A DNA stretch of 64,000 nucleotides from the IMG/VR virus record IMGVR_UViG_2713896799_000023, one strand, 5' to 3'. This DNA comes from a virus (lineage: Duplodnaviria; Heunggongvirae; Uroviricota; Caudoviricetes). The number at the start of each line of letters is the position of its first letter. Position 1 is the first letter of the stretch. Made by a program: the position numbers. Shown in pieces: positions 9,001 through 21,000 of the stretch.

Positions 9001-12000
9001 TGCTCTCTGGTACTCCAACGAATGTATGTCGCTAGCAACTTCATATCTTCGGACTATGCTTATCTAAGTGGTTCATTGAACAGGAGAACAATGATATGAG
9101 TGTTAAGGCAAGAATACTAGTGCTTTATTATTCCATGTACGGACATATTGAAACCATGAAGCATTAAAAACACAGAATTACCGAAGATCGTCCAAGAGCA
9201 TATACTTTTCAATATGTTAGACCTCATTTTGACCATAAAGAAATCGATTTTACACCGTTCTTTATACGTTCTTTTTTGCCCCAAATATGCCCCAAACAAC
9301 CACACTTTGCCCCAATAGCGCCCCAAAGATTTAAGGGGATTTAAGTATATATTTCAGATAATTAACGCAAGTTTACGATGTGAATTTACGTTAATTTTCT
9401 GGGTAGGGTATTTACCGTCATTCGTTCATCAATATTTCTGCATATTGACAAATACGCCTGAGCTATCGCGGGAGAAATGCAATGAAAGCAGCAAAAGGCG
9501 ATGTTAATCACCCTGCTCATCTCTGTATTACCGTCATTGTGACGGCACTGATAACGAAGAAAGACCTCTGCAAGGGAGGAATCCCTCGCCACCTCTGATG
9601 TGTCAGGTATCCTCACCCTCCCCAATCACATTAGCCCCGCACTTCCGTACGGGGCCATTTCTGTTAATCCACTCCCACTTTTTTGTTGTACTCGCGGTTA
9701 AACCGATCCACGGCAATTTTCATATCCCGCTCTACCGATTTCACCATCGCCGACTGTTGCGCCAGACTGAGAGTACTGTCGGCGTAAATGGCATCACGCT
9801 GTTTACGCAAATCCTTCAGTCTCTTCCGGGTATCCTGCATAAGCCCGTTCATCGACAATTTTCCGTTGTTCTCGTCAATGAACGCCGTTCTTTCTGCGCC
9901 GGTCAGACTCTTCAGCTCTGCGTGATACTGCGCAACCTCTGTCATCCGGTCGTACATCTTCTGCTGGTCAACATACGGCATCACCTCACCTGAAATTTTC
10001 CCCAGGAAAGGCACCTGCTGTTCCGGTATATCAATACCGTTCAGCGATTTCACCGCCGCATCCGTGGTTTTGGAAATGAAGCGCCCTGTACCACCAGAGA
10101 TATAGTCCACCCAGTATTTCAGCGATTCCGGTGTGATATCCACCGCGCCTGAACGGTACTGGCTGCCACCTGAGAACGCATTCAGCCAGGATGCAAACGC
10201 CTTGTACGCTTCTGGCGTTGAACGTCTTCCCAGCTGGCTGTCAGGTTTTGGTGTACCAAACGGCATGTTCTCCTGGTAAATCTGCGCCCCCATGAAGTTT
10301 TCATTCATGGCAAGGTTCGCAAACGGACGCAGAATGGTCGGCGCTGCATTTTTCAGCAATGCCCCGGACAGTGTTTCCGACGTCTCACTGCCAATCGGGC
10401 TGAATGCACCAAGCACACCACCAACAACATTACCGGCAGCACGGGACGCCGTCAGGTCACCCGCCGCCACACCTTCAGCGGTATGCCCGAGCAGGAAGAA
10501 AACGTTGTACCCGTAAGGCAGAGGAATACTCCAGTACTCTCCGGCCTTGCCCCCGAACACCGATTTCATAATGACGAGGTTACGCTCTTTCACATGAGAC
10601 GGCACCTTGTCATACCAGTTAACCCCGTCATCATCCTCCCCCGCAACACTGCGGTTAAGCGAGCCAAGCAGATAACCCGCTCCCACAGCTGCAAGCGCGA
10701 TTTTCTGCGGTACATTGAGATTCTTCCAGCGAAGGCGCTCCAGTAACGGCCCGTCGCCATTAAGATGTCCGAGCGTTCTCACCAGGTTTGCGGTCCCCTG
10801 AATGCTGGCGTTGGCGAACATGTACAGCGAGTTCATCAGCGCTCCCTGCTCACCACGACGGTTAAAGTTCACCGTCATGTTTTTGGCAAGAGACGCCGCC
10901 TGCTGGCGTGACAAACCGGCATCACGGGCGTGCTTATAGGCAGAAAGACGCAGAGCGTTTTCAACCGCACCGTTGGCATCCTCGACAAGGTTAAGGAACG
11001 AATTCCATGCACCGATACTCTGGCCTTTCCATCCCCCCTTCGCCAGTGAGACAAGGCGATCCATTTCCTTCTGCTGGCCTTCAAGGTCACCCATGTTAAA
11101 CCAGCCGGTTTTCCCTCCGTCCTCAACAAACTCTTTCCACACCTTCTGCCACTGTGCACCTTTTCCCGTGAGGGTTTTACCACGCAGACTGGCGTATACG
11201 GCTGACATGGCAGAACGGCTGTCTTTCACCACAGCCAGGGCGGATAAGTTATCCAGCCCTTTCAGTTTACCGTCGCTCCTTCCCTGCTCCGCCTTCAGGT
11301 TCATCACCGCCGTCTGCACGTCACGGATGAAGTTACTGACCAGGAATTCCGGGTTATACGACGTGTTCACCGTTGCCAGGAAGCGGTTAACTTTCCCCAG
11401 CGTACGAACAAAGGCATTGCTGGTTTCCGGTCCCATACTCTTCATCGCACGCATCAGGCGCGGATCATGGAGTTTGATGTAGTACGTTTTGCCGTTCTTT
11501 TTGGTGGTGAAGTACCGGTCTGCCATCATTGCCATCGGTACAGGGCGTTCGACAACTTCGCGAATGGTTTCACCAGTTTCCTGGTCCTTGCGCTCTGCAA
11601 TCGTCCGCATGGTATCCGGTCTGTCATCGGTGAATACCTGCCAGTAATCCTTGTCGGGATTATCCTGCACCAGTTTCAGGAAGGCGTTACCCACTTCGTT
11701 TTTGCGATGGCGGATCAGCGATTCGCTCAGGTCCTGTATCGCCTGAGTGGACGGAGACTGTGCCCGGGATGCACGCCCCATGGCCTGCCTGCTTTCACGT
11801 CCGCCGATGGTGAAGCCCTTACCTGTACGGGGCAGTGACACCACACCGTCAACATCCTGACCTTTCAGGGGAACGTAGTAACGGTAGGCGTTCTGCCAGG
11901 CATCCACCACACCGTTCTCTTCAAGTCCGGCCTCACGGATAAGCTCACGGCGACGGGCCAGCATATCGTCAATAATCCCTGCCAGACGGTCATACTGTGC

Positions 12001-18000: not shown

Positions 18001-21000
18001 GTTACCGAGTTGCGCCTCAGGACGCTGTTCCTCTGAATAGGCCATACAGACTCCATAAAAAAACCCGGCACAATGGCCGGGCATCAGGAAATGGTATTAA
18101 TGGAATATCGTGAATTACTGGGCGTAATTCTGTTTCAGTCCACGGATAAACTGAGATGCAGATGAAGCACTTTCATCTCTGGCCTGTTCCCCCCTGGCCT
18201 TTTGAATACGGAGAAAATTCGCATACCCGTTCTCCAGCAATTTCTGATTCTGAGGTTCCAGCATTTCAGGCTGACGGGCCGCTACATTTCTGGCAAATGA
18301 CAGCTTATCAGGATCATCTCCCGCCCAGTTGATAACCTGTTGCTGAAGTTTTTGTTGCTGAATTTTCTGTTGATGCGGTTGTGAACCAGTCGCAGCATAA
18401 TATTCATCCACCGCAGCCTGAGCATTACCGCCATTCTTGATCGCGTCCGCCGCTACGTTGCTGGCCCCCTTCTGAAGCTCTTTCAGAGAAAGTCCCTGCT
18501 GCTTCGGCATAAAATAACCATAATTTTTCGATATCTCTGCAAATTTGCTGCGATCCCTGACCTGAGCGATAGCCTTATCAACGGGTATCGCCAGCACGGT
18601 TTGATCATCAGGGTGCGCACTGCCGTATTCTGTTACAGGTTTATGCGCGGTGGAGCCATCGCTGTATGTGAGATCAAGGCCAATAAGTACGTACCCTTCC
18701 TGCTGCGCTGGTACGATACTGCCAATCCTGGCCTCTTTTATCGTTTTTTCCCCGGTTGAATCAGGCATGCCAATACGCTGTTGTAGTTCCGGGGCAAACA
18801 CGCCGGAAAGCACATCGAGATTTTCCGGGGTATTCAGCGAATCGATCGCCATGTCCGGCTTATCACCAAAGATTTTTTGCAGGTTGATCACGGCCTGACC
18901 CGCTTTCGCTGCATAGCCTTCGTTTGACATAAGAATTAATGGATGTCCCTTTGGCAGCTGCCCGAACAGACGCGTTGCAGCCTCCTGATCGCCAGCCTCA
19001 ATTGCTTTTCCAAGCGCTTCCATTAGTGGCTGGCTATGGGCAATCATATCGTTATACTCAAGCCGTCGCTGGTTGTATTTCTGCAACTGGAGTCGCTGCT
19101 GCTCCATACCCAGTGACGCATTCCGGTAATTCTGGTTAGCGTTAAACTCCCTTTCCTTCAGTGCATAATTACGGTCGTCAACTTTGGCTCTGTAATCAAA
19201 GTTCCGCTGATCAACGTTTTTATTATGTTCAAACTGAGACTGCGCAAACTCAAAATCGCGCTCGTTATTTTTCTGTTGCCGGGCAAGCTGTGCTTCACGC
19301 AGACCAAGCTCCTTACGACGGGTCATTGCCTGGTCAACGGTGCTGAATCCGGCAAGTAACCCCTGTGCAAATCCGCTCATTCACCACTCCTTAAAACAAA
19401 GAACCAGCAATGCCGCCAATTACTGCTCCAGCAACAGCACCAACAGGACCACCAACGGATGCGCCAATAGCCGCCCCCGTACCAATGCCCGTACCGATAT
19501 TCTGCTTGTTCTGCGCTTTCTGTTGCGCCGCCATCTGTTTGTTCGCAGCCTCAATTTCTTCACGTCGTCTGTCTGCGTCACTTATTCCCTGTAATGCCTC
19601 ACGCCGCGACTGATTTGCAATATCCAGTAAACCGTATCCCATATTGCCCCCTTACGCTGCCACCAGTTGGCCGCCAACACTCAGTTTCTGTCTTGCCGGT
19701 GCAGAAGCCCCCGTCAGAATATTCATCTGGCGATCCTGTTCGGCTTCACGGATACCATTTTTCGCGCCAGCAATTGCCAGGGCATTACGTAACCCCAGCG
19801 TATTACTGTCGGGATTATCCGGGCGGTTTACCCCGTATCTCGCCATCTGGTTATCCTGCGCCATCTGCGCTGTACGGAGACTGGAAGTGGCAAGGCCTCC
19901 CACCCGTGCAAGCTGTGCATTCATCAGACTGTTGTTCTCCCCAAGGTCAGCCAGCCTTGCTACACGGGGTAAATATCTGGTGCGCCAGTCGTCGTATTGC
20001 TGGCGGGTCAGCGCTGCGGATGTCTGCCAGTCCCCCTGAGGGCGGGCTGCTCCGGTATAACCGTATCTTGCAAGTGTTTCGTATTTACCGTACTCCATAA
20101 TCACAGTCTCCAGTTCTGAGCCTGATGCTGAATGGCATTAGCGCCGGTGCCAGGTGTTTTAGCACCGCCACTTCCTCCGCTACCGCCAGCCTTATGCATC
20201 GCATATGCACCTGCCGCACCCAGACCAGCGCCAACAAGAGAGGCTCGCCCCTGCTGTTTCGTAAACGCCGCCTGTGCATCCGATTTAGCTTTTGCCAGAC
20301 TGCTGTCTGCCAGAGAGTTAAAACTCTGTAACGCATCCGCCTTCTGACCAGAACCGAGAGCGGCAACATCCTGTAGCCCGGCAACATACTTATCTGCCTG
20401 CGATACCTGCCCCCGTGTGGTTGTGTCAATCTGCCCGGTTACCTGATCACTCTGGTTCGCATTCATTACCGCGTTAAAGCGACCACTGGACGGGTCAACA
20501 CCGGACTGAGCAAGATTACCCGCCAGCTCCCTTCGCGCTTCACCAAACTGTTTCTGATAACCAAGATTTGTTGTGCCAGCGATATTGTCGTACTGCTGCT
20601 CACTGTTAAGGTCATCGACCTTTTCCATGAAGTTATCTTCAGCCGGGCGGAGGATATTTTTGTAATCCTGCCACCCTTTCCAGGCCACTTCTTCCTGTGC
20701 TATTTGCGCTGCTGTTGGTTTTACTTTGGTATCACCACCGCCTTTACTTCCACCCATAATGGCCCCCTGGATAACAAAAAACCCTGCCGGAGCAGGGTCA
20801 GAATGTGAATTACAATGTTGGTTTAAACACAATGATGAAAACTGTAGCAGTCAGACCGCTATCCTGAACACCATGAAGCCATCCTCATCATCCGGCATTC
20901 GCTCAAAGCCCAGTCGTTTTCCCAGCCGGATAAATCCCCGCCTTGCCGTATGGAACTCAGCCCAGCGTCCGCCAGCCAGATGGGTTAATGTCTTCACCTC

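Follow-up and report, generated by a model that had tools for sequence, protein, structure and literature searches.

Shiga toxin (Stx) phages disseminate the genes for Shiga toxin, and a single giant gene takes up about 14% of their genome; that gene forms the locus described here. The locus lies in IMG/VR virus record IMGVR_UViG_2713896799_000023, a stretch of 64,000 nucleotides (the window), and consists of a minus-strand open reading frame (ORF) for a protein of 2,793 residues. Over this gene the DNA matches ORF78 of Escherichia phage P13374, the Stx2 phage of the O104:H4 outbreak, and that of TL-2011c with 100% identity, and VT2-Sakai (Sp5) with 98.9%; 186 phage records carry the gene at an identity of at least 90%. 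The window is an Stx2 prophage, and the ORF is the counterpart of Sp5 ORF80/ECs1242, P13374 ORF78 and phi24B gp47, the last equated with it from the description in the phi24B preprint and not from an alignment. These counterparts have the same length, stand at the end of the late operon (Sp5 and P13374 at 98.9-100% DNA identity) and show no biological difference from the protein considered here.

The gene, its family and its location in the virion have all been published previously, and the protein is not of a new kind. What is added here is a corrected domain map, confirmation of a first zincin domain by structural modelling, the assignment of a second motif to the HExxxH family, a correction of the MuF_C label, the recognition of a C-terminal module of ~940 residues as a conserved unit, a polymorphism of the MuF_C cassette, and the operon-wide context of the terminator that precedes the gene. 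The existing experiments come from close counterparts. Deletion of Sp5 ORF80/ECs1242 (2,793 residues) yields neither plaques nor lysogens; DNA packaging is intact and the heads look normal, binding of a tail-fibre antibody is lost, and supplying the gene in trans complements the defect (Mondal et al.; PMC5155283). These authors named ORF80 a tail-formation gene and reported a COG1483 AAA+ match (PMC5155283). In purified phi24B virions, gp47 is abundant by mass spectrometry and absent from cryo-electron microscopy maps; the preprint lists LPD5, LPD1, LPD38 and a 'MuF-C metallopeptidase' for it and proposes an encapsidated ejection protein (10.64898/2026.04.10.717836). Among more distant relatives, JC1 gp69, a Bcep22-like giant protein, is virion-associated by mass spectrometry, and CRISPR interference (CRISPRi) knock-down shows that PTXU04 depends on its LPD38 protein to infect efficiently.

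The giant ORF probably encodes a polyvalent internal virion protein of the 933W/Sp5/phi24B-type Stx podophages, acting by the mechanism proposed below. Parts of this are already established: the gene is expressed from a Q-dependent late operon, infectious particles are not made without it, and a close relative is present in virions without giving ordered density in capsid or tail. In P13374 the giant gene closes this operon, downstream of q, stx2AB and the genes for lysis, terminase, portal, major head protein and fibres, all on one strand; it is encoded among the late and virion genes of a phage with portal-terminase packaging. Several unrelated domains are fused in the protein, namely LPD5, a first zincin with LPD1, a second zincin, MuF_C/PBECR and LPD38. 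Four of these are Pfam matches (LPD5 at residues 1051-1200, LPD1 at 1361-1440, MuF_C at 1750-1839 and LPD38 at 2476-2681). Relaxed Pfam scans of six sub-regions returned only noise beyond these four, a phmmer search of the whole protein against PDB sequences gave no match (best expectation value (E) 0.8), and in PHROGs the whole protein falls in phrog_616. The proposal in the preliminary description that this is a virion-packaged polyvalent protein is supported by the four Pfam domains, by the position at the close of the late structural operon, and by the virion association of phi24B gp47 and JC1 gp69.

Polyvalent proteins, and the LPD domains found here, were defined by Iyer, Burroughs, Anand, de Souza and Aravind in 2017 (PMC5512222). 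The Stx giant protein resembles them in combining numerous unrelated domains within a single very large product of a late gene, and it shares particular components with them: zincin metallopeptidase (MPTase) hubs of both types (HExxH...D and HEXXXH), PBECR/MuF-C, LPD5, LPD1 and the phage-only LPD38. It belongs to the phage type of polyvalent protein. The main text of that study makes no mention of Stx phages and describes LPD38 as a domain of ~190 residues of unknown function (PMC5512222).

Two HExxH motifs about 270 residues apart had been noted in the preliminary description, and both are present: HEWFH (residues 1284-1288) and HEIIH (residues 1551-1555) lie 267 residues apart. They stand well above chance expectation, with 0.037 HExxH motifs expected from composition and two or more occurring in 0.02% of 5,000 shuffles. 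Both motifs are conserved in distant homologues. The first reads HEW[FWML]H in 102 of the 104 homologues covering the site; the remaining two have HE[FY].H, and HExxH is therefore retained in all 104. It forms part of an LPD5-HEWFH-LPD1 block that is a widespread unit among homologues. Across 75 sequences of 35-51% identity, H1263, E1265, H1284, E1285, H1288, D1291, D1362, Y1369, E1375 and R1379 are invariant. The NCBIfam family CLCA_X aligns to residues 1182-1437 (E 8e-44, below its cutoff); Pfam 'LPD1' is thus read as the C-terminal half of the peptidase domain. The region models as a zincin fold, with a mixed sheet, an active-site helix and a second helix, and the model resembles the protein-cleaving MtfA, lethal factor, Pro-Pro endopeptidase and M13 peptidases, not the M15/M23 cell-wall peptidases. 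It also shares the pattern described for the phage-type MPTase, in which a His ends strand 2 and an Asp lies three residues past HExxH (PMC5512222). Zincin 1 is a predicted gluzincin-like metallopeptidase, its HExxH helix being followed by a conserved Glu ligand.

The second motif belongs to a different group. A word-indexed search with zincin 2 plus MuF_C gave only 29 close fragments; an exhaustive search with residues 1466-1850 gave 1,810 relatives, most of them 1,500-4,600 residues long. The family motif is LRHE-x-x-x-H-H-G, that is, HExxxH, from which the closest relatives have lost one residue to give HEIIHH. In 22 diverse sequences drawn from the 1,810 (20-45% identity), H1551, E1552, H1555, Y1596 and E1607 are invariant, and the second motif therefore has HE-x(2,3)-H together with a downstream Tyr and Glu, an arrangement consistent with the HEXXXH clade of MPTases that Iyer et al. 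describe (PMC5512222). An alignment of zincin 2 against zincin 1 with hhalign gave a single hit, which is the homologues' own second domain and says nothing on how the two zincins are related. The earlier HExxH reading hence stands in that both motifs are conserved in distant homologues and the first region has a modelled zincin fold; it needs amending for the second, which is of the HExxxH family. Compared with the published annotation of the Stx giant ORF, the present map differs in placing two predicted peptidases at residues ~1201-1440 and ~1490-1640 and in starting from the ATG of the 2,793-residue form.

Downstream of the predicted peptidases lies MuF_C, which Iyer et al. describe as PBECR, a predicted endoRNase of the BECR fold whose first helix bears a His and whose strand 4 bears a Ser or Thr (PMC5512222). 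Catalytic-type His and Ser residues are conserved here, H1752 in 99% and S1816 in 100% of 128 representatives, and K1745 likewise falls within the range of 98-100%. The domain is predicted to be a metal-independent endoRNase, not a peptidase. The label 'MuF-C metallopeptidase' in the phi24B preprint looks wrong in this light, as the domain is a predicted BECR-fold RNase.

MuF_C is contained in an allelic cassette (residues ~1681-1880, nucleotides 12406-13005). In two E. coli variants (P0028 and P0131) the flanks are 98-100% identical, and residues ~1681-1880 are only 31-58% identical. Such exchange is of the kind expected under conflict and supports an effector role for the domain. The same cassette-swap pattern is seen in a Salmonella pair (P0046/P0068). 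The Salmonella enterica homologues P0029 and P0030 carry a segment before zincin 2, named 'phosphoribosyltransferase' by NCBI, that has no equivalent at that position here; it is regarded as another case of cargo swapping.

The ends of the protein behave differently from its middle: across 102 long relatives the middle region is variable and the termini are fixed. The anchor-like N-terminal domain (N1) occurs in 24 of these relatives, always at or near the N-terminus (starting from residue 1 to ~180), and has glycine-zipper-like, moderately hydrophobic segments at residues 181-208 and 407-425. Between N1 and LPD5 lies a low-complexity linker; the Ala/Gln/Glu-rich linkers mentioned in the preliminary description hold mainly for residues ~400-1000.

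The other fixed end is a C-terminal module of ~940 residues, found in ~20 of the 102 long relatives and always C-terminal. It aligns end to end (95-100% coverage, 33-58% identity) behind differing N-terminal domains, among them methyltransferase, ArdC-N, GGDEF and InPase, and it occurs in Vibrio phages, Ralstonia GP4-like phages, Bcep22-like phages (e.g. BcepIL02) and B. megaterium podophages. The last ~950 residues match the C-termini of three other PHROG families of giant proteins, including the 'DarB-like' phrog_10089. Here LPD38 forms the core of a ~940-residue module conserved as a whole. An AlphaFold2 (AF2) model of the module (predicted local distance difference test, pLDDT, 84.6; predicted template-modelling score, pTM, 0.81) consists mostly of helices, apart from a single beta subdomain; residues 2445-2467 form a hydrophobic helix rich in Gly and Ala. 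In BFVD the model matches the final segments of many viral giant proteins (template-modelling (TM) score 0.6-0.87), and the C-terminal part of the PTXU04 LPD38 protein matches it at TM 0.65; against the PDB it gave no informative match.

A 981-residue protein consisting of the module only is encoded in a contig of an Amphritea sp. metagenome-assembled genome (MAG; L051, 10001-12946), in a prophage-like element of ~15 kb that bears an integrase. No recognisable structural genes were found in this element, which may represent either a satellite or a prophage in decay. An autonomous form of the module of ~900-1,000 residues is not claimed, as one example starts at a contig end and the other lies in this element without structural genes.

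Under the favoured explanation, the giant protein would be stored in the head as beads of ~150-300 residues joined by low-complexity linkers, like N4 gp50, and would leave through the tail when the phage infects. Structural, anchoring or translocation roles would fall to N1 and the C-terminal module, contacting the portal or a partner or anchoring in the membrane, and it is proposed that the gene is essential because these two parts do structural work. The middle would be effector cargo, made up of LPD5, the two zincin-type metallopeptidases and the PBECR (MuF_C) RNase. The peptidases would most likely cut the giant polyprotein itself, or host proteins, and so free the RNase, which would then target RNA inside the new host.

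By analogy, the giant protein would work most like N4 gp50 or the 'DarB-like' giants of Bcep22 and GP4. N4 gp50 is a virion RNA polymerase of 3,500 residues that is encapsidated, ejected and not visible in virion maps; it has been proposed to form beads on a string with a lipid-binding N-terminal domain, has a polyvalent-type MPTase and is encoded next to the smaller ejection proteins gp51 and gp52. The Stx protein is likewise giant, invisible in maps, equipped with predicted MPTase domains and encoded next to smaller putative ejection genes, and the capsid has T=9 geometry in both N4 and phi24B. The cargo differs, being peptidases and an RNase-like domain in the Stx protein. No T7-like single-subunit RNA polymerase domain, as in N4-like virion polymerases, was found in it by Pfam or by PDB sequence search; it is not a virion RNA polymerase, and the solved N4 proteins gave no sequence or fold match to it.

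The 'DarB-like' proteins Bcep22 gp75, JC1 gp69 and that of GP4 share the C-terminal module at 26-27% identity over 82-98% of its length, and the Bcep22- and GP4-like giants likewise come last in a morphogenesis operon of the 933W type. Pfam and NCBIfam scans of the Stx protein found neither the N6-adenine methyltransferase nor the helicase domains of P1 DarB, to which DarB owes its name and its antirestriction function. Homology to the DarB-like proteins is confined to the delivery module (the LPD38 region, phrog_10089), and the giant protein is not DarB. The podophage internal proteins T7 gp16 and P22 gp16/gp20 are indispensable for infectivity and leave the particle to form a conduit for DNA. 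The Stx protein is much larger and has enzyme domains of other kinds, and PDB searches revealed no sequence or structural similarity to them.

Several points weigh against an ejected polyvalent protein. Loss of an ejection protein in P22 or T7 is not known to give a tail-assembly defect. The phenotype of the Sp5 ORF80 deletion was read by its authors as such a defect (PMC5155283). Virion packaging has been reported for phi24B gp47 and JC1 gp69; delivery into the host is what we infer, for the giant protein and its close relatives alike. The peptidase, RNase and self-cleavage activities are predictions from sequence. For zincin 2, the profile gave no significant match in the PDB (best E 0.23) and Pfam scans of the individual family members gave none. 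The hydrophobic segments of the giant protein are only moderately so (Kyte-Doolittle 1.1-1.4), and the roles proposed below for the terminators are likewise presumptive.

A broader and rather doubtful extension is that the C-terminal module is a hitherto unrecognised, structurally novel and essential 'ejection/anchor chassis' shared by 933W-, GP4-, Bcep22-, PTXU04- and Vibrio-type phages, to which each lineage adds its own N-terminal cargo; in Stx phages this would be a self-processing unit of two zincins that release a PBECR RNase, swapped as a cassette. If so, exchange of the RNase cassette between otherwise identical alleles would suggest an ongoing arms race with host RNA-based defence. 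As the gene is essential, a map that separates structural parts from cargo can guide the choice of mutations, and the protein could reveal how the phage acts on newly infected E. coli in the first minutes. The C-terminal module, with no solved structural relative, is a structural target for understanding how podophages pass 300-kDa proteins through a narrow tail.

From the earliest possible ATG the ORF runs 9664..18084 on the minus strand and encodes 2,806 residues. Because ATG 18084 sits within a hairpin stem and is not conserved (the codon is ATA or ACG in related loci), and GGAG-N5-ATG at 18045 is invariant, ATG 18045 is the likely start; the 2,793-residue protein first described is thereby upheld. 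The RefSeq record of the identical phage gene gives the longer, 2,806-residue form, starting at the ATG in the terminator stem.

The hairpin, which lies 33 nucleotides past the upstream stop codon, has the sequence of an intrinsic terminator: GCCCGGC-CATTGT-GCCGGGT forms 7 base pairs (6 of them G-C) around a 6-nucleotide loop, with a free energy of -13.6 kcal/mol, followed by a T7 tract at 18063..18057. A terminator 10 bp upstream of the start had been described; hairpin and T7 are real, and 11 nucleotides separate the T tract from the ATG. Hairpin and T tract are kept in all 49 related IMG/VR loci, one of which has only 64% protein identity, with the upstream intergenic sequence diverging. 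Two pairs have changed on both sides, with G-C and A-U interchanged at one pair and G.U, G-C and A-U found at another, and 98% of alignment cells are paired, compared with 26-45% when the partners are slid; this conservation samples ~3-4 independent lineages only. By these signs the hairpin and T tract are a real, selected and conserved intrinsic terminator.

That this terminator specifically attenuates or uncouples the giant gene, leaving few copies or giving the gene its own expression signal, is unlikely. A strong hairpin with T7 placed exactly between two genes, compensatory conservation down to 64% protein identity, and the need for far fewer copies of an internal protein than of a capsid protein would all suit such control. 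Equivalent terminators are nevertheless spread over the operon (Table 1): at least nine strong ones lie on the coding strand between window positions 18057 and 44550 (minus strand), mostly at the 3' ends of late genes, and a scan of both strands from 25 to 45 kb found 34 terminator-like sites where shuffles gave 18.9 +/- 3.8. From the terminator to the ATG of the giant gene, the coding strand showed no promoter-like site. The operon also lies downstream of q, and two reports describe Q-loaded RNA polymerase as termination-deficient (PMC9388147; bioRxiv 651190), that is, as passing intrinsic terminators by. Because terminators occur operon-wide and Q-loaded polymerase reads through them, the attenuated or separately controlled expression suggested in the preliminary description is not supported. 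The most economical reading is that Q-modified RNA polymerase overrides the terminators in lytic growth; they would probably silence the late genes in its absence and/or stabilise the 3' ends of upstream mRNA segments.

A second alternative would make the giant protein a tail-assembly factor, possibly an AAA+ ATPase, that attaches tails to filled heads and is not ejected at all. The Sp5 deletion invites this view, with its DNA-filled, normal heads that bind no tail-fibre antibody and the COG1483 match that was noted, and yet we consider it highly unlikely. The ATPase label is rejected, as the protein has no Walker A motif ([AG]xxxxGK[ST]) and scans of Pfam and NCBIfam gave no match to an ATPase family. 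Mature phi24B virions contain it in abundance, but it is missing from the resolved tail, and its domain content is of the polyvalent effector type. Stable tail attachment could also fail when an internal protein that plugs or touches the portal is lost.

Wall-degrading domains are frequent in podophage ejection proteins, a point in favour of a third alternative, in which the giant protein breaches the cell wall. This proposal of the phi24B preprint authors (10.64898/2026.04.10.717836), with a metallopeptidase digesting peptidoglycan cross-links to open a trans-periplasmic conduit, is very improbable, as the 'metallopeptidase' it invokes, MuF_C, is a predicted BECR-fold RNase, zincin 1 resembles protein endopeptidases and not M15/M23, and Pfam scans, including relaxed ones, found no lysozyme or transglycosylase domain.

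Table 1. Features of the giant gene and its surroundings, in window coordinates.
Feature	Position (nt)	Strand	Residues	Basis or remark
Giant polyvalent virion protein, coding sequence	9664..18045	minus	1-2793	2,793 residues, 308 kDa; stop codon 9664-9666
Ribosome-binding site GGAG	18051..18054	minus		5-nt spacer to ATG 18045; invariant across related loci
N-terminal domain N1	16696..18045	minus	1-450	Ala/Gly-rich; phrog_37568
Low-complexity Gln/Glu/Pro/Ala/Arg-rich linker	14926..16695	minus	451-1040	Composition
LPD5	14446..14895	minus	1051-1200	Pfam; modelled as a beta-rich domain, then helices
Zincin metallopeptidase 1 (predicted)	13726..14445	minus	~1201-1440	HEWFH at nt 14182-14196, plus Pfam 'LPD1' helices with invariant Glu1375
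Predicted metallopeptidase 2	13126..13578	minus	~1490-1640	HEIIHH at residues 1551-1556, nt 13378-13395
MuF_C/PBECR (predicted endoRNase)	12526..12843	minus	~1735-1840	PF18819, E 1.3e-17
C-terminal module	9667..12498	minus	1850-2793	Includes Pfam LPD38, residues 2476-2681, nt 10003-10620
Intrinsic-terminator-like hairpin + T7	18057..18082	minus		After the 421-residue gene (stop 18115), before the ribosome-binding site
Other coding-strand terminators		minus		3' of stx2B, Rz, portal, major head (major capsid), ORF61, lom and ORF73; 5' of the holin gene
Upstream gene for 421 residues	18115..19380	minus		Taken as counterpart of Sp5 ORF79/ECs1241 via adjacent locus tag
ORF for 83 residues, annotated 'bacteriocin'	19391..19642	minus		Glycine-zipper membrane protein

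Between the lom/hok region and the giant gene lie five ORFs, of 133, 218, 148, 83 and 421 residues. The 'four small ejection proteins' placed here by the preliminary description are a loose account of them: five ORFs are counted, none is a proven ejection protein, and only the 421-residue ORF is known to be essential. The presumed Sp5 counterpart of the latter, ORF79/ECs1241, is essential with the same phenotype as ORF80 (PMC5155283), and because of this shared phenotype the 421-residue product is a likely candidate partner of the giant protein. The 83-residue ORF gives weak matches to membrane segments of tape-measure and endolysin proteins. A bacteriocin homologue was found in phi24B virion preparations and dismissed as a contaminant by the authors (10.64898/2026.04.10.717836); the 83-residue ORF may equal this 'bacteriocin homolog' and may be a genuine internal or ejection protein.

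The prophage ends at ~9142, and window positions below that lie outside it. Beyond this end are a large serine recombinase gene (7401-9044, minus strand), a fragment of a Dit-like tail protein (6589-7380, plus strand) and a copy of IS2 (~4468-5798). These features, spanning window positions 4468-9044, may be remnants of another element adjoining the Stx prophage.

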